Translations under genes and position numbers: made by a program | The notes under the pieces: model-generated | The model's database searches: none | What the model was told of the DNA's origin: nothing | What the model saw: the letters and a program-made list of their open reading frames with translations, nothing else | Sequence record: PQ476010.1 | Reading direction: 5' to 3' (one strand) | Length of the DNA stretch: 40,478 nt | Origin: Escherichia phage PhiNW-B1 | Shown: positions 265 through 19,026 of the stretch, piece after piece | Layout of the letters: every line of letters begins with the position of its first letter | How positions within the stretch are numbered: the stretch's first letter is position 1

Positions 265-267
265 GTG

Positions 268-312
268 TTAGACTCAAGGTCATTACTGTATGTAGTGGCC
301 TTTATGGTTAAC
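268..312 (+). promoter_or_regulatory. conserved hairpin element (AAGGTCA / TGGCCTT arms), candidate RNase III processing site upstream of 18.5
   Basis: arms 276-282 and 296-302 pair with one G-U wobble; same element recurs at 5472, 9264 and 16633. Confidence 0.4.
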
Positions 313-366
313 ACTAACTAGTGGAGGAGACTCTACGTGAAAATCTGATAAACCGGGAGGGCAACT

Positions 367-810: not shown

Positions 811-1196
811 TGCTAACCGACTTTACTTACTCAGATGGGAAGTTGTTCAGGAAGGGACGCGAAGTCGGCTCAATGGACAACCACGGGTATCTAAGGACTA
901 CGGTCAACTACCGTAAGTATCTCGTACACCGTCTAATCTACAAGCTACACAACCCTGAGTTCGACCTTGAGTCAGACCTCGTTATTGACCACATCAACCG
1001 CGACCGAACAGACAACAGGATTGAAAACCTTCGGGCTGTGACTAAGGCTGAAAACAACAGGAACAGGGACCTACCGAGAGGCGTGTCTTATTGCAAACAG
1101 ACCGGGAAGTGGAAGGCTATCCAACCTCGCTGGCTCGGTCGATTTGATACTGAACAGGAGGCCATAGATGCAGTTAACGCCGCAAGAGCGGAATGA
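810..1196 (+). CDS. HNH homing endonuclease with C-terminal AP2-like DNA-binding region
   Basis: motif [28 protein letters not shown] (HNH); C-terminal GVSY...WKA...LGRF..EQEAIDA; RBS AAGGAG; ATG overlaps 18.5 stop (ATAATG). Confidence 0.8.
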
Positions 1197-2931
1197 GGCA
1201 GTAACCAATCGGATGAAAGAAGACTTCGTGTTCTTCTTATTTGTCCTCTGGAAAGCACTTAGCCTACCAGTACCAACCAGATGCCAGATAGATATGGCCC
1301 GTAAGCTCTCCGCTGGGGACAACAGGCGCTTCATCCTACAGGCGTTCCGTGGTATAGGGAAGTCCTTCATTACGTGTGCCTTCGTGGTCTGGAAGCTATG
1401 GAATAACCCAGACTTGAAGTTCATGATTGTGTCGGCCTCAAAGGAACGAGCCGATGCTAACTCCATCTTCATCAAGCGAATCATCGACCTCATGCCTCAG
1501 CTTCGGGAACTCAAACCTAAGCAGGGGCAGCGAGATGCGGTTATCAGCTTCGACGTTGGACCAGCCAAGCCAGACCACTCACCTTCGGTTAAGTCCGTTG
1601 GTATCACTGGTCAGTTGACTGGTAGCCGTGCTGACATCCTGATTGCCGATGACGTGGAGGTTCCGAACAACTCAGCGACTCAGGCTGCCCGAGACCGTCT
1701 GTCAGAGCTTGTGAAAGAGTTCGACGCTATCCTGAAGCCGGGAGGTACAATCATCTATCTGGGTACTCCTCAGAACGAGATGACCTTGTATCGTGAGCTG
1801 GAAGGCCGTGGGTACACCACTACTATCTGGCCTGCTCGTTATCCACGCGACAGGAAGGACTGGCAGTCTTACGGCGACCGTCTGACTCCTATGCTTCAGG
1901 CAGAGCTTGAAGAGGACCCTGAGTCCTTCTACTGGCGTCCTACCGATGAAGTACGATTCGATGATACGGACCTGAAGGAACGTGAGCTGTCCTATGGTAA
2001 AGCTGGCTTCGCTCTACAGTTCATGCTTAACCCTAACCTAAGTGATGCCGAGAAGTACCCTCTGAAGCTCCGTGACCTTATCGTAGCAGACTTGGACCCA
2101 GCGTCTAGCCCAATGGTCTACCAATGGCTTCCTAACCCTCAGAACAAGCGTGAGGACGTTCCTAACGTTGGACTCATGGGTGACTCATACCACACGTATC
2201 AGACTGTAGGTTCTGCCTTCAGTTCGTACACCCAGAAGATTCTGGTCATTGACCCTAGTGGTCGTGGTAAGGATGAAACTGGCTATGCGGTACTGTATCA
2301 GCTCAACGGCTACATCTTCGCTATGGAAGTTGGTGGTATGCGTGGTGGTTATGAAGACTCTACGCTGGAAGCACTAGCTAAGATTGGTCGTAAGTGGAAG
2401 GTCAACGAATACGTCATTGAGGGTAACTTCGGCGATGGTATGTACCTTGAGCTATTCAAGCCTGTAGCGGCCCGTATCCATCCTGCTGCTGTAACTGAAG
2501 TGAAGAGTAAGGGTCAGAAAGAACTCCGCATCTGTGACGTTCTGGAGCCTATCATGGGGTCTCACCGACTTATCGTTAACGCTGCTGCTATCGTCCAAGA
2601 CTACCAGTCAGCCTCTGATAAGGATGGTGTGCGTAACCCTATCTACTCTCTCTTCTACCAGATGACCCGTATCTCTCGTGAACGTGGAGCCTTGGCACAC
2701 GATGACCGACTTGATGCGCTGGCTATCGGTGTACAGTTCTTCGTTGAGTCGATGGCTAAGGATGCCAACAAAGGCGAACGTGAAGTCACTGAGGAGTGGC
2801 TGGAGGAACAGATGGAGAACCCACGGAAAGGCTTCGAGTCCATCCACACTGAGTTCTGGGACAATGGGGTCCGGGTGACTCACGATACGGACGACGAGCT
2901 GGGACTAGGGTCATACGTTACGTTCCACTAG
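1168..2931 (+). CDS. 19: DNA maturase B / large terminase subunit (T7 gp19-like)
   Basis: 587 aa; strong similarity by recall to T7 gp19 ([49 protein letters not shown]); RBS AGGAGG 6 nt upstream. Confidence 0.95.
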
Positions 2932-2940
2932 CTTAATGAA

Positions 2941-2989
2941 TAACTATAGGTGAAAACTGCATGAATACGCAGTTAGTAACCTATAGTTA
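2941..2989 (+). repeat. 49-nt palindrome (11-bp perfect outer stem TAACTATAGGT/ACCTATAGTTA with nested 6-bp stem) immediately after gene 19
   Basis: arms 2941-2951 and 2979-2989 are exact reverse complements; inner AACTGC/GCAGTT 2954-2959 and 2970-2975. Confidence 0.6.
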
Positions 2990-3025
2990 CTACCAGTCTA
3001 ACCTACTGTTTTACAAGGAGTTTGG

Positions 3026-3048
3026 ACTTAACTATCACTATAGGGAAG
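3026..3048 (+). promoter_or_regulatory. phage RNAP promoter (phiOR-like), +1 G at 3043
   Basis: ACTTAACTATCACTATAGGGAAG matches the 23-bp consensus repeated 11 times in the window; located between gene 19 and 19.5 as phiOR is in T7. Confidence 0.75.
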
Positions 3049-3227
3049 ACCCCCGGTTACTTATAGTATTACTGTAGTGAATATACATATGCAGACTTTA
3101 TGCAAGACCTTAGGAGGCAGACTCCGAGTTCTTACCTAAGGCTTGCACCGATGGAAGGAGGTGATATTAATCATAATACCTCCAATACAGATAGTCACAG
3201 ACCATAGATACAGGAGGTATGTAGCAT

Positions 3228-3386
3228 ATGGCAAAGACCAAAGCTGTACTTAAAGCTCTGGCGACCAATCGAGCTACATACAGGTTTCTTGCTGCTGTTC
3301 TACTTGCTGCTGGCGTTACTGCTGGAAGTCAGTGGGTCGGGTGGGTCGAGACTCTCATATGTTCTCTGGTGTCTGAGTGTCATTAA
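3228..3386 (+). CDS. 19.5: small membrane protein (gp19.5-like)
   Basis: 52-codon ORF MAKTKAVLKALATNRATYRFLAAVLLAAGVTAGSQWVGWV...; RBS CAGGAGG 9 nt upstream; below the ORF-track size cutoff. Confidence 0.5.
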   Translation: MAKTKAVLKALATNRATYRFLAAVLLAAGVTAGSQWVGWVETLICSLVSECH

Positions 3387-3421
3387 CGCCGTAATGGTAA
3401 CAATCAACGAAAGGAGGTAGT

Positions 3422-3490
3422 ATGGACGAAGAGTCTTACGGTTCGTTCTCTGAAGAGGACTATAAGACGGAGTGGGAATACGCACATTGA
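3422..3490 (+). CDS. 22-codon acidic mini-ORF (MDEESYGSFSEEDYKTEWEYAH), existence uncertain
   Basis: strong RBS AAGGAGG 4 nt upstream of ATG; no homolog recalled. Confidence 0.2.
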   Translation: MDEESYGSFSEEDYKTEWEYAH

Positions 3491-3494
3491 AGAC

Positions 3495-3535
3495 CTAAGG
3501 TCAGTTCATAGCTGACGCTACTCTACTGACCTTAG
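3495..3535 (+). promoter_or_regulatory. hairpin (10-bp perfect stem CTAAGGTCAG/CTGACCTTAG) downstream of 19.5
   Basis: arms 3495-3504 and 3526-3535 are exact reverse complements, 21-nt loop. Confidence 0.4.
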
Positions 3536-3610
3536 CTACTGTAGTCAAGGACTTTAGGTAACACCTTAAGAGAAGCTCACTTAGTGTCATCCTACTTATT
3601 GGTCTATCCT

Positions 3611-3650
3611 AGTGTCGCCTGACCTACGGTCCTTGACCTACAGTGGCTGT
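3611..3650 (+). repeat. short-repeat array (3 copies of GRCCTACRGT) on the right side of the terminal repeat (SRR-like)
   Basis: GACCTACGGT 3611-3620, GACCTACAGT 3625-3634, GGCCTACAGT 3641-3650. Confidence 0.8.
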
Positions 3651-3698
3651 GGCCTACAGTAGTGACGATGAGTTTTGGACCAAAAGTTTGAGACCACA

Positions 3699-3915
3699 TC
3701 TCACAGTTCAAGAACCTCAAGTCTCCCCATAGGCCCTCTTTAAGTCCAGACCAAATGCCCTACCAGTTACTGCTCCTTGCAGTCACAGCCAGTCTATCAT
3801 AAGGTTGGACCGATGGTCAAGACGTTAGGTCGACGATAGGTCTAGGCTATGGCTTAGGGAAGGACGATAGGTGGTGACTATTGGTCTGTCTTTGAGTCTC
3901 TATCTGTATCAGACC
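3699..3915 (+). repeat. putative terminal-repeat segment at the concatemer junction (single copy here); boundaries approximate
   Basis: starts TCTCACAGT...TCTCCCCATAGG resembling the T7 left end TCTCACAGTG...TTCCCCCATAGG by recall; flanked by short-repeat arrays on both sides; contains TATCTGTAT near its end. Confidence 0.45.
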
Positions 3916-3920
3916 ATAAG

Positions 3921-4010
3921 TCACTAACCTACAGTCTCACTAACCTACAGTCTCACTAACCTACAGTCTCAATCATAAGACACCAACACCTACAGTCATA
4001 GACCTACAGT
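3921..4010 (+). repeat. short-repeat array on the left side (3 perfect tandem 16-mers TCACTAACCTACAGTC, then 2 more ACCTACAGT copies; SRL-like)
   Basis: units 3921-3936, 3937-3952, 3953-3968; ACCTACAGT again at 3988-3996 and 4002-4010. Confidence 0.9.
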
Positions 4011-4121
4011 TACTAGACACAAAGCTATAGACTTAAGGTCAAAGACATGTTAGTCAAAGACTATATCCTATTACACCATGGGGCCGACGATAGCTTAATC
4101 AATATTATTTCAAATTACCTA

Positions 4122-4150
4122 TTGACTATAGGTCTAGACTATGGCTTAAT
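4122..4150 (+). promoter_or_regulatory. candidate host sigma70 early promoter (TTGACT-17-CTTAAT)
   Basis: -35 TTGACT 4122-4127 (identical to T7 A1 -35), weak -10; inference. Confidence 0.3.
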
Positions 4151-4262
4151 AGCTTCCGTCAACACGACACGGCAACAACCGGATAGTGAAGACGCCTGGT
4201 CATCCCGGTTAAGTAGACAGCCTGATAAGTCATACGAACAACAGGCAGATGACAGAAAGTAG

Positions 4263-4291
4263 TTGACAAGAAGTAAGACTTAAAGTAGTAT
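4263..4291 (+). promoter_or_regulatory. candidate host sigma70 early promoter (TTGACA-17-TAGTAT)
   Basis: consensus -35 TTGACA 4263-4268, 17-bp spacer, -10 TAGTAT 4286-4291; upstream of first early gene. Confidence 0.45.
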
Positions 4292-4418
4292 GTACCACAT
4301 CAACACGAAACAACGGTGAAGCCTAACACTGAAACAGGCTAGCACGGCGACGACAGCCAGTGCGAATGCTCTTTAACAATCTGGATAACTCTTAATGTGC
4401 GCCGATAGCGACTAACTA

Positions 4419-4450
4419 CAGGGCCTTTTAGTCTACATCTGAAGGCCCTG
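4419..4450 (+). promoter_or_regulatory. hairpin (9-bp perfect stem CAGGGCCTT/AAGGCCCTG), candidate RNase III site before first early gene (R0.3-like)
   Basis: arms 4419-4427 and 4442-4450; followed by ACTGATAGTCACTAAC, which recurs at 4768-4783. Confidence 0.4.
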
Positions 4451-4473
4451 ACTGATAGTCACTAACTTAACGG

Positions 4474-4728
4474 ATGGACACTATGAAACACTTAAGCACA
4501 ATCACTAATCGCAATGAAGTATTCGTGAACACTAAAGGTTATGCGTGGATTCAGCTTAAAGAGATGAGAGGAGCGCGTCACCGTGTGGTAGTTCGCAAGG
4601 TATCAAGCAAGCCGTTCAGCAACTACAGCGTAGATACTATGCGTATAGACAACGAGACTTACCTGATAGACTCGCAGATAACCGTGCGTCCTACAGCGGG
4701 CATCTCAGCTCCTTATTTCGCTAACTGA
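4474..4728 (+). CDS. hypothetical early protein (84 aa)
   Basis: ORF in early region upstream of ocr; no homolog recalled. Confidence 0.55.
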   Translation: MDTMKHLSTITNRNEVFVNTKGYAWIQLKEMRGARHRVVVRKVSSKPFSNYSVDTMRIDNETYLIDSQITVRPTAGISAPYFAN

Positions 4729-4745
4729 GAGTGATTAACTACAGG

Positions 4746-4783
4746 TCGTTAGACTGATAGCGGCCTGACTGATAGTCACTAAC
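4746..4783 (+). promoter_or_regulatory. second copy of early hairpin element (stem CAGGTCG/CGGCCTG plus ACTGATAGTCACTAAC)
   Basis: 7-bp stem with one G-U; shares 5' GA(C/T)TAACTACAGG and 3' CCTGACTGATAGTCACTAAC with element at 4410-4467. Confidence 0.35.
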
Positions 4784-4811
4784 ACATAATTAACTTTGAG
4801 AGGATATAACT

Positions 4812-5315
4812 ATGGAACGTAATGCTAACGCATACTATGAGCTGCTGGCTGCAACCGTTGAGGCATTTATCGAGCGTATTCAGTACGACCACCTGACTCA
4901 AGATGATGACTACAGCGATGCGCTGCATGAGGTCGTAGACGGTCAGGTTCCACACTATTACCACGAGATTTTTACGGTGATGGCTGCTGATGGTATAGAC
5001 CACGAGTTCGAAGACTCTGGGCTGATGCCTGAAACCAAGGACGTAACGCGTATACTACAAGCTCGCATCTATGAGGCGCTTTATAACGATGTGTCTAATA
5101 GCTTGGATGTAGTCTGGTTTGAGGCTGAAGAGGCAGACGAAGAGGATGAATATTGGGTAGTTGACGCTAAAACAGGCGCAATAATTGTGCAAGCTGTAGC
5201 TCTTGAGGTCGCTACTGCATGTGCCAAGGTCAACTATGCAATAGGTCGCCACCTGAAGGTGGAAGACATCAATGATAACGTAGTGTTCGACCCTGCGGCT
5301 GAGGACTGCGAGTGA
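4812..5315 (+). CDS. ocr: Ocr-like anti-restriction DNA mimic (T7 gp0.3 homolog) with about 54-aa C-terminal extension
   Basis: N-terminal ~113 aa align by recall to T7 Ocr ([35 protein letters not shown]); 167 aa versus 117 in T7. Confidence 0.85.
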
Positions 5316-5464
5316 TGGTAACTTATGGTCTCTGCCAGCACCACGTCGCCAACGCCCGGCTTATGGTCAAGACCGGGCGGTTAACCCATGATGAGACTAT
5401 GCGTCTCCTGAAGGTGGTCTACAAGCGCCGCAAGCGCATACACGACAGTTTGCACGCTGAGTGA
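5315..5464 (+). CDS. hypothetical small basic protein (49 aa)
   Basis: ATG overlaps ocr stop (TGATG); [49 protein letters not shown]; below track cutoff. Confidence 0.4.
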   Translation: MVTYGLCQHHVANARLMVKTGRLTHDETMRLLKVVYKRRKRIHDSLHAE

Positions 5465-5471
5465 TAAACGA

Positions 5472-5496
5472 GAGGTCACTACTGATAGGTGGCCTC
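5472..5496 (+). promoter_or_regulatory. hairpin GAGGTCAC / GTGGCCTC, member of the AGGTCA/TGGCCT hairpin family
   Basis: arms 5472-5479 and 5489-5496 pair with one G-U wobble. Confidence 0.35.
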
Positions 5497-5530
5497 AAAG
5501 ATTACCACTTACATTGATAGGAGAATTACT

Positions 5531-5698
5531 ATGAAATTTACAATCATCGCACTTTACGTAACCATTATTCTATCTTGGCTTACTGCGGTGCTCACTGATG
5601 GTAACGCATTACGACTGGGCTGGCTGGCAGTGGACATTATATTCTCTCCGGTAGGTGTCGTGCGCGGTATCTTGATGTGGATTGGACTGGCAGGATAA
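5531..5698 (+). CDS. small hydrophobic early protein (56 aa, predicted membrane)
   Basis: ATG 5531 preceded by AGGAGA 6 nt upstream; track ORF 5489 begins at a GTG without RBS. Confidence 0.5.
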   Translation: MKFTIIALYVTIILSWLTAVLTDGNALRLGWLAVDIIFSPVGVVRGILMWIGLAG

Positions 5699-5701
5699 AC
5701 T

Positions 5702-5899
5702 ATGAGTCTTGCACTATTGATAGCCATAGGCTATGGACTTATCGCCTACGTGCTGGTGAGAGACATCAACAAAGCGCGTAAAGTCTACAAATTCAACTAT
5801 GTACGTCTGGGCCGCTGGACTGTACGTCAACCTAACGGACGATTCATGCGCAACTTAGCGAACGTCTGGGATATAGCAACTATTGGGAGCAAACTGTAA
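5702..5899 (+). CDS. small early protein with N-terminal transmembrane helix (65 aa)
   Basis: MSLALLIAIGYGLIAYVLV hydrophobic N-terminus; tightly packed after previous gene. Confidence 0.5.
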   Translation: MSLALLIAIGYGLIAYVLVRDINKARKVYKFNYVRLGRWTVRQPNGRFMRNLANVWDIATIGSKL

Positions 5900-6159
5900 T
5901 GAAAACCGTATACATTAACAAACCATCTAGCCATAGCCGTGTAGAGCAAATAGAGCGTGACATGTTCTTACATCGCCGCATGAGGGCTGAGGGCCATAAG
6001 TACGAACTGATGAGTCTGGCGTTTGGTGGACGACCGATCACTGACGATGGTAAACTTTTAGTCTCAGGCTGGAAGGCGATAGACCAACGGTCAACCATCA
6101 AGCACACGACTCACGGTGACTTCAGCCATCTCCACGCTAACCCACTGATATGCAAGTGA
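5899..6159 (+). CDS. hypothetical early protein (86 aa)
   Basis: ATG overlaps previous stop (TAATG); no homolog recalled. Confidence 0.55.
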   Translation: MKTVYINKPSSHSRVEQIERDMFLHRRMRAEGHKYELMSLAFGGRPITDDGKLLVSGWKAIDQRSTIKHTTHGDFSHLHANPLICK

Positions 6160-6164
6160 TTATG

Positions 6165-6187
6165 ACTTAACTATCACTATAGGACTC
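6165..6187 (+). promoter_or_regulatory. phage RNAP promoter immediately upstream of the RNAP gene, +1 G at 6182
   Basis: ACTTAACTATCACTATAGGACTC matches the window consensus. Confidence 0.65.
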
Positions 6188-6256
6188 AAGGTCTAAGACT
6201 CCAAGTGAAAGACCAAAGAGACTTTAAGTGAAAGACTAATAACAAGGACTTTAAGT

Positions 6257-8938
6257 ATGAGCGTCATCTCTATTGACAAACACGACTTCTCTGATGTGTC
6301 GAACGCCATTGAGCCGTTTAACCTGCTGGCTGACCACTACGGGCAAGACCTTGCAGTCAAACAGCTTCAGCTTGAGCATGAGGCCTACACTGAAGGTGAG
6401 CGACGTTTCATCAAGAACCTTGAGCGTCAGACTGAGCGCGGGGAACTGGCAGACAATCAGGTCGCCAAGCCTTTGATGCAGACTCTGGTTCCTAAGATTG
6501 CGCAAGCCGTCAAGGAGTGGCACGAAGGTCCAGACGGGAAGCTGTCAACCTCTCGTCCTAGCGTAGCGTTCACCATGTTGAGCACTGAAGAGAAGGCCGT
6601 CAAGGACCGCTCTCTTCGCATCTCCTGCGAGTCTGCTGCGGTTATCATACTGAAGGTCATCCTCTCCAAGCTGGTCAAGCCTGAAGGGATACCGATTACA
6701 CCGATGGCCTCCGCGATAGGTCGCACACTTGAGGACGAAATCCGCTTCGGTCGCATCCGTGACAAGGAGAAGGAGCACTTCAAGAAGGCGATAGCTGAGA
6801 ACTTGAACAAGCGAGCTGGGGCATCCTACAAGAAAGCCTACATGCAAGCGGTCGAGGCCTCCATGTTGGAGCAAGGACAACTGGAAGATGCGTGGGGAAC
6901 TTGGAGTCCGACCGAGGCTGTCCACGTTGGCATCAAGATGCTTGAGATTGTCATCCAGTCAACACAACTGGTCGAGCTTAAGCGGTACGGTGCTGGCAAT
7001 GCAGCGGCTGACGTAGAGATGGTCCACCTGTCAGACTTCTGGGTCAAGAAGATGGCACAACGCGGATTTAGCCTTGCGGGTATCGCCCCAGTCTACCAAC
7101 CTTGCGTCGTTCCACCTAAGCCGTGGACCGGTGTCGTAGGCGGTGGGTACTGGGCCAAAGGTCGCAGACCATTACCACTGATTCGCTTAGGGTCTAAGTC
7201 TGCGGTGGCACGTTACGAAGACGTGTATATGCCTGAAGTCTATGACGCTGTTAACATCATCCAGAATACACCTTGGAAAGTGAACAAGAAGGTTCTGGAC
7301 GTGGTGAACATGGTCGAGAAGTTGAACAACACGCCTATTGATGACATCCCTCAGATGGAGCCACTGAAGCCTGAAGAATATGCGGGTGAGACTGAAGAGG
7401 AACTCAAGGCGTGGAAGAAAGCGGCTGCTGGTATCTATCGCCGCGAGAAGGCCAGACAGTCACGCAGATTGTCACTGAGCTTTATCGTGAACCAAGCTAA
7501 CAAGTTCTCTCAGTTCAAGGCCATCTGGTTCCCGTACAACATGGACTGGCGCGGTAGAGTCTACGCTGTGCCGATGTTCAACCCTCAGGGTAACGACATG
7601 CAGAAGGGTCTCCTGACTCTGGCAGTCGGTAAGCCTATTGGTGCTGATGGTTTCAGATGGCTGAAGGTCCACGGTGCAAACTGTGCGGGTATTGATAAAG
7701 TAACCTTCGAGGAGCGCATCAAGTGGGTGGAAGATAACCACGACAACATCATGGCTACCGCTAAGGCACCGATGGACAGCATTGAGTGGTGGGGTAAGTT
7801 AGACTCTCCGTTCTGCTTCCTAGCGTTCTGCTTCGAGTATGCTGGCGTAATGCATCACGGATTGTCTTACTCCTGCTCGCTGCCGATAGCATTCGATGGG
7901 TCCTGCTCTGGGATTCAGCACTTTAGCGCGATGCTTCGTGATCACATCGGTGGACATGCAGTAAACCTGACGCCTTCCGGTAAGGTCCAAGACATCTACC
8001 GCATCGTGTCTGACCGCATTGAGGAAGAGCTTAAAGTCCTGCTGGTTAACGGCACGGACAACGAGATGGTAACTCACGAGGACAAGAAAACTGGTGAGAT
8101 TACCGAGCGTCTCAAGCTGGGGACACGAGAGCTGGCCCGTCAGTGGCTGACCTACGGTATGTCACGAAAGGTCACTAAGCGTTCGGTCATGACTCTGGCC
8201 TACGGGTCGAAAGAGTACGGCTTCGCAGACCAAGTTTACGAGGACATCGTGATGCCAGCGATTGACTCAGGGTCTGGCGCTATGTTCACTGAACCAAGCC
8301 AAGCATCTCGCTTCATGGCTAAGATGATTTGGGAAGCTGTGAGTGTGACCGTAGTTGCTGCGGTTGACGCGATGAAATGGCTTCAGGGTGCTGCCAAGCT
8401 GCTGGCGGCTGAAGTGAAGGACAAGAAGACGGGTGAAATCCTGAAGCCTTGCCTTCCGGTACACTGGGTCACACCTGATGGGTTCCCGGTCTGGCAGGAA
8501 TACCGCAAGAAGGATACCACTCGTCTGAATCTGATGTTCTTAGGGTCATTCAACCTTCAGCCTACCGTCAACAAAGGCACGAAGAAAGAGCTGGATAAAC
8601 ACAAGCAGGAGTCAGGCATTAGCCCGAACTTCGTCCACTCACAAGATGGTAGCCACCTGCGCAAGACTGTAGTCCACACGCATCGCAAGTATGGCGTGAT
8701 GTCATTCGCAGTGATTCATGATAGCTTCGGGACCATCCCGGCTGACGCTGAATATCTGTTCCGTGGTGTCCGTGAGACGATGGTCGAGACCTACCGCGAC
8801 AACGATGTGCTGCTTGACTTCTACGAGCAGTTTGAATACCAGCTTCACGAGAGCCAGCGCAATAAGTTGCCAGAGCTTCCGAAGAAAGGTAAACTGAATA
8901 TCGAAGACATCTTGTCTTCAGACTTTGCATTCGCTTAA
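6257..8938 (+). CDS. 1: single-subunit DNA-dependent RNA polymerase (T7 gp1 homolog)
   Basis: 893 aa; extensive identity by recall to T7 RNAP (AIWFPYNMDWRGRVYA, NPQGNDM.KGLLTLA, DGSCSGIQHFSAMLRD, HDSFGTIPADA, C-terminal FAFA). Confidence 0.98.
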   Translation: MSVISIDKHDFSDVSNAIEPFNLLADHYGQDLAVKQLQLEHEAYTEGERRFIKNLERQTERGELADNQVAKPLMQTLVPKIAQAVKEWHEGPDGKLSTSRPSVAFTMLSTEEKAVKDRSLRISCESAAVIILKVILSKLVKPEGIPITPMASAIGRTLEDEIRFGRIRDKEKEHFKKAIAENLNKRAGASYKKAYMQAVEASMLEQGQLEDAWGTWSPTEAVHVGIKMLEIVIQSTQLVELKRYGAGNAAADVEMVHLSDFWVKKMAQRGFSLAGIAPVYQPCVVPPKPWTGVVGGGYWAKGRRPLPLIRLGSKSAVARYEDVYMPEVYDAVNIIQNTPWKVNKKVLDVVNMVEKLNNTPIDDIPQMEPLKPEEYAGETEEELKAWKKAAAGIYRREKARQSRRLSLSFIVNQANKFSQFKAIWFPYNMDWRGRVYAVPMFNPQGNDMQKGLLTLAVGKPIGADGFRWLKVHGANCAGIDKVTFEERIKWVEDNHDNIMATAKAPMDSIEWWGKLDSPFCFLAFCFEYAGVMHHGLSYSCSLPIAFDGSCSGIQHFSAMLRDHIGGHAVNLTPSGKVQDIYRIVSDRIEEELKVLLVNGTDNEMVTHEDKKTGEITERLKLGTRELARQWLTYGMSRKVTKRSVMTLAYGSKEYGFADQVYEDIVMPAIDSGSGAMFTEPSQASRFMAKMIWEAVSVTVVAAVDAMKWLQGAAKLLAAEVKDKKTGEILKPCLPVHWVTPDGFPVWQEYRKKDTTRLNLMFLGSFNLQPTVNKGTKKELDKHKQESGISPNFVHSQDGSHLRKTVVHTHRKYGVMSFAVIHDSFGTIPADAEYLFRGVRETMVETYRDNDVLLDFYEQFEYQLHESQRNKLPELPKKGKLNIEDILSSDFAFA

Positions 8939-8952
8939 CAGGAGAGAGAGCT

Positions 8953-9168
8953 ATGAAATATGCACACAAGCATACTGGCGTTAATGGTGGGACTCAAATC
9001 GTGACCGTAACAGAACACAACGGCAAGGGTCTGGTGAAGACCACGGTCATCCCTACCGAGATGTCCAAGCAGCTTAACATCCCGTTCAAGACTCTTGTAG
9101 ATCTGGTCGAGTCCAGCCACGAGAAGTACCTGAAGGACGCAGTGTCCAAGCTGGAGCAGGCCAAATGA
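8953..9168 (+). CDS. hypothetical protein (71 aa)
   Basis: RBS AGGAGAGAG; position just after gene 1. Confidence 0.55.
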   Translation: MKYAHKHTGVNGGTQIVTVTEHNGKGLVKTTVIPTEMSKQLNIPFKTLVDLVESSHEKYLKDAVSKLEQAK

Positions 9169-9242
9169 CAGACCTACAGTTACTGGCCTTGTGGCTAGGA
9201 GCACTCGCAGTATTCATTTTAATCCAACGCAGAAGAGGTTAA

Positions 9243-9265
9243 CCTAAACTATCACTATAGGATTA
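9243..9265 (+). promoter_or_regulatory. phage RNAP promoter (phi1.1-like), +1 G at 9260
   Basis: CCTAAACTATCACTATAGGATTA. Confidence 0.75.
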
Positions 9266-9307
9266 GACTCAAGGTCATGACTCAAAGTCGTGGCCTTCAT
9301 GATTAAC
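9264..9307 (+). promoter_or_regulatory. conserved hairpin element (AAGGTCA / TGGCCTT), candidate RNase III site R1.1-like
   Basis: arms 9271-9277 and 9291-9297; flanks TAGACTCAAGGTCAT ... GTGGCCTTCATGATTAAC shared with copies at 268 and 16633. Confidence 0.4.
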
Positions 9308-9338
9308 CCTAAATAAACACTACTGGAGATTTAACCGT

Positions 9339-9518
9339 ATGTATCAGAATACTATCAACTTCGAGCGCATCCGTGAACGTCAGCAGACTGAAGGCTACAT
9401 CCCTAAGGGCCGCAAGCTGAACAAGACCAAGCGTGGCGGTGGCATCAAAGGAGCTTTCCGAAACGCTGAAGGTAAAGACTCTCTGGTCAACCAAGAGAAA
9501 TACTTCGTAGGAGCATAA
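9339..9518 (+). CDS. 1.1: gp1.1-like small basic protein (59 aa)
   Basis: contains KGRKLNKTKR as in T7 gp1.1 by recall; below track cutoff. Confidence 0.6.
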   Translation: MYQNTINFERIRERQQTEGYIPKGRKLNKTKRGGGIKGAFRNAEGKDSLVNQEKYFVGA

Positions 9519-9522
9519 CCAA

Positions 9523-9786
9523 ATGGGCCGACTTTATAGTGGCAACCTCAACGCTTTCAGAGCAGCGCGCAACAGGCTTTATCAGTTAGACTTCGCTGTC
9601 ATATCTCAGGAGTTTCAAGACTATACGTCACGCCAAGAGTGCATGAAACTCAGGGTGGAGGACCGAGCTGGTAACATCTTCGCGCTTGAGACCTTCGCAC
9701 ACTATGATGAAGACGTTCTGTATAATACCGCAACCGACTACCTCAACGGTCTCGCTGACCAACTCGACACATGGAGCAAAGCATAA
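9523..9786 (+). CDS. 1.2: gp1.2-like (host dGTPase inhibitor family)
   Basis: MGRLYSGNL.AF.AA.N.L.QLD.AVI ... HYDEDVL.N..TD.LN resembles T7 gp1.2 by recall. Confidence 0.85.
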   Translation: MGRLYSGNLNAFRAARNRLYQLDFAVISQEFQDYTSRQECMKLRVEDRAGNIFALETFAHYDEDVLYNTATDYLNGLADQLDTWSKA

Positions 9787-10826
9787 TGACAACTATCAAA
9801 ACTAACCCGCACCGCGCTGTAGATTACTCTGAGTCTGGCATTAAGAAGGCACTGGAAGCAGCCGGGTCTCTGGAAGCTGAAGTGAAGTATGACGGTGTGC
9901 GTCTAAACCTCACGGTCCTGCGTGAAGGTGAGACCTACTGGCTGAGCCGTGAGTCTAAACCTCTTCCAGCCTTGGAGTGGATGAACTCTGAGTTAGGGAA
10001 TGCGTGTACCCAAGCTGACTGGCGATGGTTCCTGCGTCAAGCTGGCTACGAAGGCGTGGGCCTGATGATTGACGGAGAGGTAATGGTAAAAGGAGTGGAC
10101 TTCAATACCTCCTCAGGTCTCATCCGAACGAAGTGGCTGAAGCCCAACAACGAGGCGTTCGCTGAATGCTATCAGGGCCGTGGCAAGAAGGTCCCGTTCT
10201 GGGTCGCCCGGTCCCGACTTCAGGTTGTGGTCTACGGTGTCGTCGACATGACGACCATAGCCGACCCGAAAGCAGAAGGTCCTATCCATAGCGTCACACG
10301 CCTGAAGGCCGAAGCTATCGTACCTCTACTCCAGAAATACTTCCCGGAAATCGACTGGGTTCTGTCTGAGTCACACACGGTCTATGACCTTGAGTCGCTC
10401 AACTCCCTGTACGAACAGAAGCGTCTGGAAGGACATGAGGGTCTGGTGGTCAAGGACCCACTTGGCAAATACAAGCGCGGCAAGAAGTCAGGCATGTGGA
10501 AAATGAAGCCTGAGGAGACAATTGACGGGACCGTGTGTGGACTCGTGTGGGGGACTCCGGGTAAGGCTAACGAAGGTAAGATCATCGGCTTTGAGGTTCT
10601 ACTGGAAGATGGCATGGTGGTTAACGCCTGTGGTCTGACTGAGAAGCAGAAGGACGAGTTCACGGAAGCCTGTAACACTGACACATATATCCTTGGTGGT
10701 GTCAATCCTTACGAGGGCTGGCAGGTTGAAGTCCTCTACATGGAGCGATTCCATGACGGCTCACTGCGTCACCCTAGCTTCAAGTGCTGGCGCGGGACGG
10801 AAGATAACCCGACCATTAAGAGCTAA
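9786..10826 (+). CDS. 1.3: ATP-dependent DNA ligase (T7 gp1.3 homolog)
   Basis: KYDGVR adenylation motif, LRHPSF, EGHEGLVVKDP; start chosen at ATG 9786 (MTTIKTNP as in T7 MMNIKTNP) overlapping 1.2 stop. Confidence 0.95.
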   Translation: MTTIKTNPHRAVDYSESGIKKALEAAGSLEAEVKYDGVRLNLTVLREGETYWLSRESKPLPALEWMNSELGNACTQADWRWFLRQAGYEGVGLMIDGEVMVKGVDFNTSSGLIRTKWLKPNNEAFAECYQGRGKKVPFWVARSRLQVVVYGVVDMTTIADPKAEGPIHSVTRLKAEAIVPLLQKYFPEIDWVLSESHTVYDLESLNSLYEQKRLEGHEGLVVKDPLGKYKRGKKSGMWKMKPEETIDGTVCGLVWGTPGKANEGKIIGFEVLLEDGMVVNACGLTEKQKDEFTEACNTDTYILGGVNPYEGWQVEVLYMERFHDGSLRHPSFKCWRGTEDNPTIKS

Positions 10827-10835
10827 CTAAATGTC

Positions 10836-10874
10836 AACCCAGTGGTCTTAGGACTGCTGGGTTTCTTTGCTTTG
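10836..10874 (+). terminator. early terminator (TE-like) after ligase gene
   Basis: stem 10838-10845 / 10854-10861 (8 bp with 2 G-U) followed by TTTCTTTGCTTTG; position as T7 TE after gene 1.3. Confidence 0.55.
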
Positions 10875-10909
10875 TGCTAGCAAGCTATCGTCTGGGACAC
10901 CAGCTAGAC

Positions 10910-10932
10910 CCTAAGCTATCACTATAGGACAA
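10910..10932 (+). promoter_or_regulatory. phage RNAP promoter, +1 G at 10927
   Basis: CCTAAGCTATCACTATAGGACAA (G at -12). Confidence 0.7.
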
Positions 10933-10956
10933 CCATCAACAACCTAAGGAGACTCT

Positions 10957-11217
10957 ATGTCTAAGAACTTAATGTTCAACCGTTATTCTAATACCTTCCA
11001 CCTGTCCAACAACCCGTTCGCTTGCATTAAGCGCAACGAGAAGATTGGCTACTTCGGGAAGGCCGTTAAGCTGTCACCTACAGTCTACGCTCTGATTACT
11101 CCGGGCAAAGCTGAAGAGGCTCGCCAGAAGCGTGAGACCAACGTACATGTGGTCTACACCAAGTGGCCTCGCGTTCGTCTGTTTGTTGAGTTCGTGAAGG
11201 AGGTGATCAATGGTTAA
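10957..11217 (+). CDS. hypothetical protein (86 aa)
   Basis: RBS TAAGGAGA upstream; no homolog recalled. Confidence 0.55.
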   Translation: MSKNLMFNRYSNTFHLSNNPFACIKRNEKIGYFGKAVKLSPTVYALITPGKAEEARQKRETNVHVVYTKWPRVRLFVEFVKEVING

Positions 11218-11650
11218 GGTTGGGGATACAGTTGCATATGTTGGACCAGTTGAAGCCTACATGGGACGCTACTGTGGCAAGGTGATAGTGGTTAAGAATG
11301 AGCATGTAGCTGTTGTTAAGTGGCCCGGTTTATCTGAACCACGCAGTCACTCCATTAGCTCCTTAAGTATTACCAATCAGGCTCAGTCCGAGCCGACAAC
11401 CATAGGTCAGGGAGATAGCGTCCGTAAGCCGTCGTACTATCAGGTATTTGACGGAGTGGAGTCCATTGAGATTATCGCTCGGTCCATGACTGTCAGCGAG
11501 TTCCGTGGGTTCTGCATGGGTAACGTCCTGAAGTATCGACTCCGAGCTGGTAAGAAGTCCGAGCTGGCTACTATGGAGAAGGACATGGCGAAAGCTGAGT
11601 TCTATGGTGAACTTTACGAGAAACATAAGGACAAGTGTTATGACGCGTGA
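11210..11650 (+). CDS. hypothetical protein, position-equivalent to T7 gene 1.6/1.7 (possible gp1.7-like C-terminal domain)
   Basis: RBS GAAGGAGGTG; segment KPSYYQVFDGVESIEIIA...GNVLKYRLRAGKK resembles a conserved phage domain; assignment tentative. Confidence 0.55.
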   Translation: MVKVGDTVAYVGPVEAYMGRYCGKVIVVKNEHVAVVKWPGLSEPRSHSISSLSITNQAQSEPTTIGQGDSVRKPSYYQVFDGVESIEIIARSMTVSEFRGFCMGNVLKYRLRAGKKSELATMEKDMAKAEFYGELYEKHKDKCYDA

Positions 11651-11867
11651 AGAACTTAAAGCTGTAGGGGTGAAGCGTAGAGCGCTCAGTTTTTACCGAG
11701 CATACAAGGCGCTACGTAAGGGTATGTTAGCGTTCTCATTAGGACACAGTGAGTATTATGACTATGACCTCCTACCGTTTGCTTATATGAAGACTCCTAG
11801 TATGATTATTAGGGTAGAGGAGTATGACCATTCTGACGACTGTGTAATGGTGAACCGATATGCTTAA
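11640..11867 (+). CDS. hypothetical protein (about 75 aa; track start 11604 is alternative)
   Basis: in-frame ATG at 11640 gives smaller overlap with upstream gene. Confidence 0.45.
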   Translation: MTREELKAVGVKRRALSFYRAYKALRKGMLAFSLGHSEYYDYDLLPFAYMKTPSMIIRVEEYDHSDDCVMVNRYA

Positions 11868-11954
11868 ACCGAGTGAGTGGTGCCGGGAGATGTACGAGAA
11901 GACTCTCAACCAGGACTACATTACGTTATACAACCAATGGAAGGAGCGTGGTCT

Positions 11955-12113
11955 ATGACTGACGTAGAAAAGAAATACATCGTGGAGCTTGAGGGTCGCG
12001 TTCAGTCATTCGAGGTTCCGGTGTACGCAAAGTCTCTTGAAGAGGCTACCCTGAAGTCCCAAGAGTATGAGGACGCTGGTTTTGTGGTCGGACGAATCCG
12101 TCCTGAGACCTAA
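11955..12113 (+). CDS. 2: gp2-like inhibitor of host RNA polymerase
   Basis: [14 protein letters not shown]...GF.V.R.RP resembles T7 Gp2 (SFEVPIYAETLDEA...GFEVTRVRP) by recall; ATG 11955 with AAGGAG 8 nt upstream; track ORF starts at an upstream GTG lacking an RBS. Confidence 0.75.
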
Positions 12114-12131
12114 ACTATCACTGTAGGACAG
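12109..12131 (+). promoter_or_regulatory. variant phage promoter (phi2.5 position) with CACTGTAGG instead of CACTATAGG
   Basis: CCTAAACTATCACTGTAGGACAG; A to G at -3. Confidence 0.5.
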
Positions 12132-12170
12132 ACGTCCAGTTCGTAACTTTAAATTAGGAGATTTACACCG

Positions 12171-12869
12171 ATGGCTAAAGAGCAACTGAAGACTTTCACC
12201 ACTCCGGTAGCTGGTATCGTTGAGCCTTACGCATGGCTTAACAAAGCAGACACCAAGTTTAACGAGCGTGGTGAGCATAAGGTTAACCTGACTTTCAGTC
12301 TGGATGACCCGAAGGTCCGTAAGATGATTGATGTCTTACAGAAGATTCACGACGATGCGTATGCGAAAGCACTCGCAGACCACGAGAAGAACCCACCTCA
12401 GGTTCAGCGTGGCAAGAAGCCTATCGAGCCGCGTGAAGGCGATATGCCGTGGATTGAGAATGGTGACGGTACTGTTACCCTGAAGTTTAAATGCTTTGCG
12501 TCTTACCTGAAAGACGGCAAGTCCGAGCCTATCGTATTACGGTTCTACGACACCGATGCTAAACTCATCCGTGACGTCCCGAATATTGGCGCTGGGTCTA
12601 AGCTGAAGGTCAAGTTCAAAGTCCTGCCGTTCAAGTGGAACGCTGCGACTGGTGCAAGCGTTAAGCTCCAGCTTGAGTCCTGCCTTCTGGTAGAACTGAA
12701 GGAGTGGAAAGGTGATGGTGCTGGTGGTGATGGTGGTTGGGGTGACGATGAAGACCTAGGTACTGGGTACAAAGCGTCAACCGATGGTGACTTCGGGTCT
12801 GACGACTTCGGTGACGATGGTTCCGAAGGTGGTGACGACTCCAGCTCTGGTGGCGATTACGACTTCTAA
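12171..12869 (+). CDS. 2.5: single-stranded DNA-binding protein (T7 gp2.5 homolog)
   Basis: 232 aa as in T7; GDMPW..NGDGT.T.KFKC, GSKLKVK..L.P.KWN...GASVKLQLES; acidic C-terminal tail ending in F. Confidence 0.95.
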   Translation: MAKEQLKTFTTPVAGIVEPYAWLNKADTKFNERGEHKVNLTFSLDDPKVRKMIDVLQKIHDDAYAKALADHEKNPPQVQRGKKPIEPREGDMPWIENGDGTVTLKFKCFASYLKDGKSEPIVLRFYDTDAKLIRDVPNIGAGSKLKVKFKVLPFKWNAATGASVKLQLESCLLVELKEWKGDGAGGDGGWGDDEDLGTGYKASTDGDFGSDDFGDDGSEGGDDSSSGGDYDF

Positions 12870-13321
12870 TGGCCCAATGGTCTGCAAAACGGGGGCACTC
12901 TGTGGGTGCCTACCGCTCTGGACTTGAAGCCAAGAACCAGCAGTGGCTGGAACAGAACGGCGTCAAAGCGGAGTACGAAAGCCATTATATCAACTATGTG
13001 ATTCCGGCTTCCGACCACAAGTACACACCAGATTTTATCCTTCCCAACGGTATCATCGTGGAGACCAAAGGTATCTTCGATAGTGATGACCGTAAGAAGC
13101 ACCTTCTGGTACGAGAACAGCACCCAGAGTTAGACATCCGGTTCGTGTTCTCAAGTTCCCGCTCCAAGTTATACAAAGGGTCTCCGACCACGTATGGCGC
13201 ATGGTGCGAAAAGAACGGCTTTAAATTTGCCGATAAATTCATCCCGGTTGAGTGGCTGCGAGAGGCGACTGTACGTCTGCCTTCAGGTATACTCATCCCC
13301 AAGAAGAAAGGAGTTAAGTGA
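12869..13321 (+). CDS. 3: endonuclease I, Holliday-junction resolvase (T7 gp3 homolog)
   Basis: FRSGLE, HKYTPDF.LPNGI.VETKG...DDRKKHLL.REQHPELDIRFVFSSSR.KLYKGSPT.YG.WCEK.G.KFADK match T7 gp3 by recall. Confidence 0.95.
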   Translation: MAQWSAKRGHSVGAYRSGLEAKNQQWLEQNGVKAEYESHYINYVIPASDHKYTPDFILPNGIIVETKGIFDSDDRKKHLLVREQHPELDIRFVFSSSRSKLYKGSPTTYGAWCEKNGFKFADKFIPVEWLREATVRLPSGILIPKKKGVK

Positions 13322-13776
13322 TGACTACCTGTAAAGACCTTGAAGTTGGAACACGTTACAGATTCTCAAAGAACACCCTGTTGAATAACCCCAGCTTCAC
13401 TGATGCTGTTTTCGAAAAGCGAGAAGACCATAGCGTAATTGTGGAGAAGGGGTGGCATCCTGAGGATTATATCGGTGAGACTACCAGCTGGAATGGTCAC
13501 GAGACCTACAGTGTAGAAGTTGTTGACCAGCCTCAAGTCCTGCCAGCTTCGAGCGTACCTCCTGTGACTGTGAAGCGTGAAGTCCTGACAATCGACAAGA
13601 TTGGTGTAGGCCAGACGTTCATCGTCCATGGAAAGCCTGAAGAAGTTTACGTGAAGATTAGCAACTCACACGTCTTCAACCATAAGCGTCTCCAGATGCA
13701 CACCACGGACGCACAACGCTTCACCCAGCACCTGAATCTAGTGGTCGTAGAATTGGTGGTGTACAATGGTAAGTAA
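13321..13776 (+). CDS. hypothetical protein (about 151 aa) between endonuclease I and amidase
   Basis: ATG 13321 with AAAGGAG 7 nt upstream; no homolog recalled. Confidence 0.6.
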   Translation: MTTCKDLEVGTRYRFSKNTLLNNPSFTDAVFEKREDHSVIVEKGWHPEDYIGETTSWNGHETYSVEVVDQPQVLPASSVPPVTVKREVLTIDKIGVGQTFIVHGKPEEVYVKISNSHVFNHKRLQMHTTDAQRFTQHLNLVVVELVVYNGK

Positions 13777-14224
13777 GGTACAGTTCAACCCACGGTCCCG
13801 GACTGACGCTATCTTCGTTCACTGTTCGGCTACCAAGCCAGAGATGGACATCGGGGTAGAGACCATCCGTATGTGGCACAAGCAGCAAGGCTGGCTGGAC
13901 GTAGGCTACCACTTTATCATCAAGCGCGATGGTACTGTGGAAGAGGGTCGCCCGGTAAACGTCGTAGGGTCACACGTTAAGGACTGGAACTCACGGTCTG
14001 TAGGCGTCTGCCTTGTAGGTGGAATTGACGCTAAGGGCAAGTTTGAAGCTAACTTCACTCCGGACCAGATGAACTCCCTACGCAACAAGCTGGCTGACCT
14101 GAAGTCCCTGTATCCTCAGGCAGAAATCAAAGCACATCATGATGTAGCACCAAAGGCGTGTCCAAGTTTCGACTTACAGCGCTGGCTGTCTACTAATGAG
14201 CTGGTCACTTCCGACCACGGTTAA
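13766..14224 (+). CDS. 3.5: N-acetylmuramoyl-L-alanine amidase / T7 lysozyme homolog (gp3.5)
   Basis: VQF..R.RTDAIFVHCSATKP...WLDVGYHFIIKRDGTVE.GR....GSH.K..N..S.GVCLVGGID.KGKF.ANFTP.QM.SLR...HH.VAPKACPSFDL.RW...ELVTSD.G. Confidence 0.95.
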   Translation: MVSKVQFNPRSRTDAIFVHCSATKPEMDIGVETIRMWHKQQGWLDVGYHFIIKRDGTVEEGRPVNVVGSHVKDWNSRSVGVCLVGGIDAKGKFEANFTPDQMNSLRNKLADLKSLYPQAEIKAHHDVAPKACPSFDLQRWLSTNELVTSDHG

Positions 14225-14248
14225 TAAACTCTAAAGGAGAATAACTTA

Positions 14249-14464
14249 ATGATTAAACTTATCGAATTTCTAGGTCGTCTGGTGGTGCGTGGTTATCGTC
14301 GTGCTGCGGTACTGGAACGAAAGGTAGAAAAGAAGACTGCTGATGGCGCGGCTGATGCGGCTGCTCTGGCTGACAAGCTGACCATCGCGTCACTGGAAGC
14401 TGGCATGAAGGCTCGTCAGGCTGATACCAAAGCTGACCAGTTGGCTCAGTTCTTCAAAGACTAA
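14249..14464 (+). CDS. hypothetical protein (71 aa)
   Basis: RBS AAGGAGA 8 nt upstream. Confidence 0.55.
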   Translation: MIKLIEFLGRLVVRGYRRAAVLERKVEKKTADGAADAAALADKLTIASLEAGMKARQADTKADQLAQFFKD

Positions 14465-14482
14465 ACTATCACCTTAGGGATG
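14460..14482 (+). promoter_or_regulatory. degenerate phage promoter-like sequence (CACCTTAGGG instead of CACTATAGGG)
   Basis: GACTAAACTATCACCTTAGGGAT; upstream half perfect, 2 substitutions at -4/-3. Confidence 0.35.
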
Positions 14483-14532
14483 GGACCATGAGTCCTGTCC
14501 CTTTGTTCGCATTTGTGACTAAGGAGTGACCG

Positions 14533-14712
14533 ATGGTTACAGTTATTCTAGTTCTAACGCTTATCAGTGGTAGTGGGCAAACTATCAGCCAAGTACCTAT
14601 AACAGCACCAACATTACAGGACGCATTCACAATATGTGACCAGTCCGGCTCAAAGTGGGCCGACAAGTTTGGCGATGTCTCAAACGTTGCAGCAGGGTAT
14701 GAGTGTATTTAA
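14533..14712 (+). CDS. small protein with signal-peptide-like N-terminus (59 aa)
   Basis: MVTVILVLTLISGSGQ...; RBS TAAGGAGTGACC duplicated verbatim in front of gene 4; below track cutoff. Confidence 0.4.
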   Translation: MVTVILVLTLISGSGQTISQVPITAPTLQDAFTICDQSGSKWADKFGDVSNVAAGYECI

Positions 14713-14719
14713 GGAGTGA

Positions 14720-16423
<1,704 letters not shown>

Positions 16424-16465
16424 TCGGGACATCGCTGACTATAAGAATTTTACGGAGGACCGTTA

Positions 16466-16630
16466 GTGTTAAAGAAACTTAAAGCTCGATACCACATGTT
16501 CATGTACAAATGGTGGAGCGATGAAGCAACCTGCCTGTCGAACATTCTGGGAGACCAGCGGTTCAACTCTGAGGCATGGAAGAAAGCTAACCGGAAGTTC
16601 ATGTATCACTTCTTGCGTACAGACTTCTAG
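16466..16630 (+). CDS. hypothetical small protein (54 aa, GTG start)
   Basis: GGAGG 7 nt upstream of GTG 16466; VLKKLKARYHMFMYKWWSDEATC... Confidence 0.4.
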   Translation: MLKKLKARYHMFMYKWWSDEATCLSNILGDQRFNSEAWKKANRKFMYHFLRTDF

Positions 16631-16632
16631 GT

Positions 16633-16673
16633 CTAGACTCAAGGTCATTCATAGCGAGTGGCCTTTATGATTA
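16633..16673 (+). promoter_or_regulatory. conserved hairpin element (AAGGTCA / TGGCCTT) upstream of DNA polymerase gene
   Basis: arms 16641-16647 and 16659-16665; third copy of the TAGACTCAAGGTCAT...GTGGCCTTTATGATTAA element. Confidence 0.4.
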
Positions 16674-16693
16674 AACTAAAGCGAGGATTAACC

Positions 16694-18865: not shown

Positions 18866-19026
18866 TGAAGAAGCAGACCTTTACAAGACAGGAGGTCATA
18901 GACCTTATGAGAAGTGCTTGGTGGAGTGGTCACGAGACCTCTCGCTATTGCCCGAACTTGTCAGGGTCTTGTGCTTCTGACATCCGTGAGCTTCTTACAC
19001 CTGATGCCGAAGAGGAGAAAGACTAA
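18865..19026 (+). CDS. hypothetical small Cys-containing protein (53 aa)
   Basis: ATG overlaps gene 5 stop (TGATG); AAGGAG 8 nt upstream. Confidence 0.45.
   Translation: MKKQTFTRQEVIDLMRSAWWSGHETSRYCPNLSGSCASDIRELLTPDAEEEKD

Follow-up and report, generated by a model that had tools for sequence, protein, structure and literature searches.

The RNase III processing sites of bacteriophage T7 were reportedly described by Dunn and Studier in 1983, and one of them, R1.1, is said to have become the model substrate of the Nicholson laboratory. The 11-bp recognition helix of the Escherichia coli enzyme was defined using R1.1 and comprises a proximal box of G-C, A-U and A-U pairs, a middle box of U-G and C-G pairs, and a distal box of U-G and U-A pairs; internal loops limit cleavage to one phosphodiester, and the resulting 3' hairpin shields the RNA from exonucleases (PMC1540722). 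R3.8, R4.7, R6.5 and R18.5 are strong sites in T7 (bioRxiv 10.1101/106799), and it is from the biology of T7 that a single cut, a protective hairpin at the 3' end and effects on the downstream RNA are known (PMC1540722; bioRxiv 10.1101/106799; PMC6993053). Other E. coli RNase III substrates, such as the rRNA precursor stems, the lambda N leader and sib, and the rnc and pnp leaders, are likewise irregular stems of ~20 bp acted upon by the same host enzyme (PMC1540722), although they display no sequence homology to the family considered here and many of them are cut on both strands, which destabilizes the RNA, in contrast to the single cut and protective 3' hairpin brought about by the T7-type internal loop. 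In the T3 record (NC_003298) ten stem-loops are annotated as 'RNase III recognition site', and as the T7 records used for comparison are without RNase III features, T3 was taken as the annotated reference.

The window analysed here, that is, the whole 40,478-nt stretch of DNA from Escherichia phage PhiNW-B1 (PQ476010.1), is a circularly permuted T7-like genome of the K1F-like type (Kayfunavirus, a relative of T7), in which every long open reading frame (ORF) lies on the plus strand. In sequence comparison, the 3-kb stretch surrounding the element under study is 98% identical to Escherichia phage 216Ecol046PP and also matches hundreds of Studiervirinae genomes, the closest being Kayfunavirus (K1F-like). 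The window opens with the end of gene 18, followed by genes 18.5 and 19, a non-coding genome-end region at ~2930-4260, and then the early, DNA-metabolism and structural genes. Short direct repeats (ACCTACAGT, CACTAACCTA, GACGATAGGTCTAG among others) are numerous in the long non-coding region at 2930-4260, which also has a phage promoter (3028-3044) and is presumably where the ends and terminal repeats of the permuted T7-like genome are located.

A first-pass annotation of this DNA had described four hairpins with a common stem, at 276-302, 5472-5496, 9271-9297 and 16641-16665, three of them with extended flanks in common, and we find all four at these positions, with the flanks exact in the three copies starting at 269, 9264 and 16634. 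The 5' flank TAGACTCAAGGTCAT occurs at 269, 9264 and 16634 and the 3' flank GTGGCCTTYATGRTTAA at 295, 9290 and 16658, when 0.22 occurrences of the latter would be expected. The pattern AGGTCA-N5-25-TGGCCT is found five times on the plus strand of the window (277-301, 5473-5495, 8169-8201, 9272-9296 and 16642-16664), against 0.08 expected from shuffled sequences. The match at 8169-8201 is located inside the RNA polymerase ORF; because it has no flanks and is not recognized by the covariance model described below, it was rejected as a family member and is probably due to chance. A common core, ACUCAAGGUC...GUGGCCUU(U/C)AUGAUU, unites the window hairpins with T7 R0.5, R1.1, R4.7 and R18.5, and the core sequence of the window sites is also that of T7 R0.3, R0.5, R1, R1.1, R1.3, R4.7 and R18.5. 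The four-member family is real as far as it goes, but the window holds at least six members, the additional ones being located at 4403-4469 and 4726-4786.

The T7 RNase III cleavage coordinates, which we take to be 890, 1468, 3138, 5887, 6448, 11203, 13892, 18563, 27281 and 36856 after Dunn and Studier (1983), served to read the corresponding T7 sequences, and seven of the ten display the core ACTCAAGGTC...GTGGCCTTTATGATT. In those seven sites the assumed coordinate falls in the same structural place, after ...CCUUUAU, which provides a consistency check of an internal kind only. T7 R0.5, TAGACTCAAGGTC...GTGGCCTTTATGATTA, is essentially the window consensus. A covariance model (R1) was trained on four window sites and seven T7 sites and searched with filters off; besides its training sites it finds T7 R6.5, which was outside the training set. 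In T3, the same model returns exactly eight matches at E<1, all eight of which are annotated 'RNase III recognition site' stem-loops, and misses T3 R3.8 and R13, which have a different form. In the window it matches six sites, at 31-66 bits, including the two at 4403-4469 and 4726-4786 that had been overlooked, while minus-strand scores are ≤13 bits. A scan of the whole window against Rfam gave no match, none of the 4227 families reaching its gathering score on the hairpins.

All six sites lie on the plus strand between ORFs, some of them overlapping the stop codon of the upstream ORF, in positions syntenic with T7 and T3, and all six are conserved in K1F at syntenic positions. T7 R0.3, R0.5, R1, R1.1, R1.3, R4.7, R6.5 and R18.5 resemble the window sites in the core ACUCAAGGUC...GUGGCCUUUAUGAUU, in the two stems with an asymmetric loop and in their intergenic location on the transcribed strand, synteny being observed for R0.3, R0.5, R1.1, R4.7 and R18.5. 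The proposed equivalence of three of the hairpins to T7 R18.5, R1.1 and R4.7 is upheld by the T7 alignment, by the T3-checked model and by synteny. Cleavage has been mapped at the T7 sites, whereas those of the window are known by their sequence and predicted structure.

The element that drew attention to the family is the R1.1 counterpart, at 9255-9316 on the plus strand, which starts at the transcription start of a phage promoter and precedes the gene 1.1 homologue (9339). It comprises an upper stem (9271-9282/9286-9297), an internal loop with ACUC opposite CAUGA, and a lower stem (~9258-9266/9303-9311), and it scores 64.3 bits in the model (E 2e-12) with a fold of -20.2 kcal/mol (z -3.9). 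Its extent had been given as 9264-9307; the element is real, but the functional unit is larger, reaching from ~9258 to ~9311 once the lower stem is included. The phage RNA polymerase promoter (TAAACTATCACTATAGG) occupies 9245-9261 on the plus strand, so that the hairpin's lower stem comes first in the transcript made from it; the promoter consensus has 11 matches in the window against 0.14 expected. The same arrangement, a promoter followed by R1.1, is found in T3, in which R1.1 overlaps the 3' end of its promoter. T3 differs from the window in promoter specificity and in loop and lower-stem sequences, and its annotation is based in part on homology to T7.

The R18.5 counterpart (260-321, plus strand) is located between gene 18, which ends at 264, and gene 18.5, which starts at 367. 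Its upper stem (276-286/292-302) is identical to that of T7 R1.1 in the first nine pairs, its lower stem spans ~264-270/309-315, and the model score is 66.3 bits (E 7e-13), with a fold of -23.4 kcal/mol (z -3.6); the K1F orthologue is found at 36444-36505. The R4.7 counterpart (16625-16684, plus strand) lies between gp4.3 (stop 16628-16630) and the DNA polymerase gene (ATG 16694), in the same manner as T3 R4.7, which is directly before gene 5 and ends 25 nt upstream of it. In this site, which scores 63.8 bits, all ten pairs of the upper stem (16641-16650/16656-16665) are those of T7 R1.1, but the lower stem is weak, with six of seven pairs and one C.A mismatch, and the minimum-energy fold has the upper stem only (z -1.3). 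The hairpin at 5472-5496 had been correctly placed in the early region without being matched to a particular T7 site. It belongs to a site at 5456-5515 on the plus strand (upper stem 5472-5480/5488-5496) that overlaps the TGA (5462-5464) ending the gene 0.35/0.4 homologue and lies upstream of gp0.36 (likely ATG 5531), with a score of 55.8 bits and a fold of -19.9 kcal/mol (z -3.6). Since its outer flanks, CUGAGUGAUA.AC...GAUUA.CACUU, match those of T7 R0.5 (in DNA letters CTGAGTGATA.AC / GATTA.CACTT), it is the orthologue of R0.5.

Both of the additional early sites carry a variant core, ACUACAGG..CCUGACUGAUAGUCACUAAC, which resembles R1 of T7 and T3. The more upstream one (4403-4469, plus strand) is just 5' of an ORF at 4474-4728 encoding a homologue of K1F gp0.2, and with its core ACUACAGGGCC...GGCCCUGACUGAUAGUCACUAAC obtains 30.9 bits (E 1.9e-4) and a fold of -26.2 kcal/mol (z -3.8); orthologues are present in K1F (705-771) and PP328844 (1504-1570). 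The other (4726-4786, plus strand) occupies the R0.3 position, between gp0.2 (stop 4726-4728) and the ocr-like gene 0.3 (4812). It has a T7-R1-like core, ACAGGUC...GGCCUGA, in which the first six upper-stem pairs are those of T7 R1, and scores 41.2 bits (E 6.5e-7) with a fold of -23.8 kcal/mol (z -4.6), the K1F orthologue being located at 1028-1088.

The window and T7 sites have the same predicted fold, in which an asymmetric internal loop, with ACUC facing U/C-AUGA, separates a 9-12 bp upper stem from a lower stem of 6-9 bp, and structure prediction, which had been suggested as a check, indeed returns this two-tier hairpin. The z-scores range from about -3.3 to -4.6 in five of the six window sites, the exception being 16625-16684; for the T7 sites and the hairpins first described, with the same exception, they are between -3.3 and -3.9. 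When the 11 window and T7 sequences were analysed with RNAalifold the two-helix structure was returned, with 10 of 18 pairs covarying. In order to assess covariation on a larger scale, loci were collected by a pattern scan of IMG/VR followed by model searches, yielding two sets of 74 and 71 distinct sequences. Paired cells amount to 95.2% and 94.8%, respectively, compared with 24-50% after sliding the 3' partners by 1-3 columns, and double-sided changes occur in 15 of 18 and 16 of 18 pairs, values that none of 500 shuffles reaches. The collecting pattern fixed the loop together with the basal part of the upper stem, where conservation is consequently overstated, and left the covariation of the lower and apical stems unaffected; as the alignments are in addition fitted to the model, the informative covariation is that of the lower stem and of the upper stem's apical half. 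An unfitted MAFFT alignment of 16 R1.1 orthologues from four promoter-specificity groups (K1F-type, ATTAGGTAGCACTATAGG-type, T7-type and T3) gave the same structure, with covariation in 7 of 18 pairs. Lower-stem pairs switch between lineages from U-A to A-U, from C-G to U-A, and from G-U to U-A to A-U. Thus, the stems are maintained in relatives by compensatory changes, one of the points on which the first-pass annotation had staked its proposal. The U.G pair within GGUC/GGCC is retained in ~85% of the sequences, and at five of the six sites plus-strand folds are much stronger than minus-strand folds; this conserved wobble and the strand asymmetry therefore indicate an RNA element and not a DNA palindrome.

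Based on sequence homology, fold, covariation, synteny and strand, we hold with high confidence that the hairpins are the K1F-group counterparts of the T7 and T3 RNase III processing sites, from which we infer cleavage by the host enzyme and, by analogy with T7, the precise bonds that are cut and the consequences for stability and translation. Rho-independent terminators or attenuators partitioning the gene blocks would be another use for hairpins in such positions. In fact, MZ726794.1 labels five orthologous hairpins, at 1060-1095, 1860-1892, 2298-2333, 6255-6291 and 13475-13509, as 'rho-independent terminator; discovered using WebGeSTer', all coinciding with model matches, and the stems do contain G+C and are followed by a few U residues. 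However, a terminator scan of positions 1-20000 listed none of the six hairpins, because they are devoid of a U-tract, their tails being UAUGAUUAA, UAUGGUUAA, CAUGAUUAA, AAAGAUUAC or ACUGAUAGU, while it did list the true early terminator at 10836-10863. Furthermore, one of the sites is at +1 of a phage promoter and another is directly before the DNA polymerase gene, with no promoter between, and termination would leave both the conserved internal loop and the covarying lower stem unexplained. In T7, both polymerases read through the homologous elements. We consider the reading as terminators or attenuators extremely improbable.

Base-pair changes are also known that allow RNase III to bind without cutting (PMC1540722), and the site at 9255-9316 has a non-canonical pair in its distal box. 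Given that the conserved loop, in addition, holds an AUG near the next ribosome-binding site, the hairpins might be structured elements, of RNA or of DNA, that serve some purpose besides cleavage, such as a stabilizing hairpin, binding without cutting, a translational operator or a DNA palindrome. The last of these was ruled out, being opposed by the G.U pairs and the strand asymmetry. As for the others, the core is near-identical to that of T7 sites with mapped cleavage, the family occupies the same positions as the cleavage sites of T7 and T3, and no extra conserved partner element was seen, and we consider a non-cleavage role very unlikely.

As processing sites, the hairpins differ in how closely they follow the recognition rules established with R1.1. 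The box pairs of 260-321, with 9 bp identical to T7 R1.1, and of 16625-16684, with 10 bp, are compatible with the E. coli enzyme. In contrast, the first distal-box pair of 9255-9316 is G-C, U-A being the optimum there in the minimal R1.1 substrate, 5456-5515 has G-C at position 3 of the proximal box and C-G, U-G in the distal box, and 4403-4469 and 4726-4786 use CAGG/CCUG, the last three sites departing further than 9255-9316 from the R1.1 consensus boxes. Nevertheless, the functional T7 sites R0.5 and R1 depart from the rule to a comparable degree, and the rule was derived on a minimal substrate.

By homology with T7, host RNase III would bind the coaxial stack of ~20 bp formed by an irregular hairpin of ~50 nt with an AAGGUC.../...GGCCUU upper stem, and would cut only the 3' strand, owing to the internal loop. 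With the scissile bonds placed by the T7 coordinates assumed above, the predicted cuts, 3' of ...CCUU(U/C)AU, come after positions 305, 5499, 9300 and 16668, and after 4453 and 4770 in the variant sites. The long early transcripts of the host polymerase and the later ones of the phage polymerase would thereby be split into defined mRNAs, the upstream product ending in a hairpin that may protect it against 3'-exonucleases and the downstream product having its 5' end ~25-40 nt ahead of the following ribosome-binding site. Early transcripts initiated at host-type promoters (best match 4263-4291) are expected to run to the terminator at 10836-10863 and to be cut at 4403-4469, 4726-4786, 5456-5515 and 9255-9316; in phage-polymerase transcripts the cuts would fall at 9255-9316, 16625-16684 and 260-321. 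Transcripts initiated at the 9245-9261 promoter would form a lower stem two pairs shorter than that of read-through transcripts and would lose a 5' leader of ~41 nt. The intrinsic terminator (10836-10873, plus strand) is located after the ligase gene, at the T7 TE position, and consists of a 12-bp stem followed by UCUUUGCUUU, with a fold of -19.4 kcal/mol (z -4.3); in the terminator scan no other early-region hairpin has a U-tract. Both T7 and T3 have TE annotated after gene 1.3, and we propose that the host-polymerase transcript, the one that would be cut at the early sites, ends at 10836-10873.

Compared to T7, the window shows one additional early site, ahead of gene 0.2 (4403-4469), and is without a canonical site before gene 1, where a phage-type promoter (6167-6183) is found instead, without R1.3, because genes 1.2 and 1.3 overlap, and without a convincing R6.5. 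Model, sequence comparison and fold point to no convincing counterpart of R1, R1.3 or R6.5 in the window. The candidates rejected were 6184-6220, after the promoter before gene 1, with a 5-bp stem and z -0.17; 20935-20996 as R6.5, with z -0.47 and no model match; and 4028-4042, where TAGACTTAAGGTCAA has no partner arm and the fold z is +0.14. The promoter at 6167-6183 (TTAACTATCACTATAGG, with one mismatch to the consensus) lies directly 5' of the RNA polymerase gene (ATG 6257), in the place occupied by R1 in T7 and T3. Downstream of it, ACTCAAGGTCT represents the 5' half-motif of the RNase III family, with no canonical hairpin, and the 100-nt polymerase leader is almost invariant in six Kayfunavirus genomes.

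We may also hypothesize that the Kayfunavirus set is a rewired T7 processing map and not a copy of it, a reading that we regard as rather doubtful and which may follow from the extra gene 0.2 site, the lack of a canonical pre-polymerase site and the non-optimal distal box of 9255-9316. If true, processing of the polymerase mRNA would take a different course, the polymerase could transcribe its own gene in a positive feedback, and 9255-9316 could bind RNase III weakly, acting as a regulated rather than a constitutive site.

Two further candidate sites are of the forms that the model does not capture. At 14476-14515 (plus strand), an 11-bp hairpin (14476-14502) stands at the 5' end of the transcript from a variant promoter (14462-14478, TAAACTATCACCTTAGG), with a fold of -19.5 kcal/mol (z -4.1), and in sequence comparison is followed by the tail CUUUGUUCGCAUU, as in R3.8 of T7 and T3. 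Six Kayfunavirus genomes conserve this candidate R3.8-type site, most of the changes being in the loop, the only variable part of the hairpin, and a few substitutions downstream of it; the site is outside the reach of the model, as are T7 and T3 R3.8. The candidate R13-type site (29160-29208, plus strand) is a perfect 12-bp inverted repeat (29160-29171/29197-29208) around a promoter (29178-29194) before gene 13, with a fold of -21.5 kcal/mol (z -3.2). Its hairpin can form on read-through transcripts only; T3 R13 and R6.5 are likewise annotated with a promoter inside the loop. The sequence is 100% identical in six Kayfunavirus genomes and so carries no covariation information.

The processing sites also bear on the assignment of gene starts. 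The GTG at 16658, which opens a 735-aa polymerase ORF, lies within the 3' arm of the hairpin, and the claim that this upstream start is spurious agrees with the starts in relatives. In PP328844, the polymerase CDS begins 11 nt past its hairpin match, and in T3 gene 5 opens 25 nt past R4.7, both supporting a later start, and the true start is likely to be the ATG at 16694, preceded by GAGGA. At two sites, 5489-5491 and 16658-16660, the conserved 3' arm (G-GUG-GCC) contains a GTG that shares the reading frame of the following gene, and therefore mechanical ORF calls over-extend both gp0.36, with its likely ATG at 5531, and the DNA polymerase, with its ATG at 16694. The AUG of the conserved loop, at 16667, likewise belongs to the polymerase frame.

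The 49-nt core of the 9255-9316 element is present in 621 phage records, and in the sampled rows of these the sole feature annotated under it is the 'RNase III recognition site' of T3. Both K1F reference records are without annotation of these sites, and our literature search found no paper combining RNase III with Kayfunavirus and no transcript-end data for Kayfunavirus. The element is of a textbook kind and already known, its instances being orthologous to, and nearly identical in core with, the T7 sites. What is new are the two previously overlooked family members, some departures from the map of T7 sites, and the extent of missing or wrong annotation. The importance of the finding is mainly one of annotation, the understanding of RNase III or of T7-type gene expression being unchanged by it. 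Recognizing the sites leads to correct gene starts and transcript maps, and they constitute ready-made processing parts for the engineering of K1F-type therapeutic phages.

A half-motif occurs in one more transcript of the window. At 24801-24815 only the 5' half is found, UAGACUCAAGGU without a partner arm, inside the 5' stem-loop of the capsid-gene transcript, and it was rejected as a site. This transcript, from the capsid promoter at 24772-24788, starts with the stem-loop GGGAUACC...GGUUUCCC (24787-24817, z -2.3), which is analogous to the 5' stem-loop of the T7 gene 10 mRNA.
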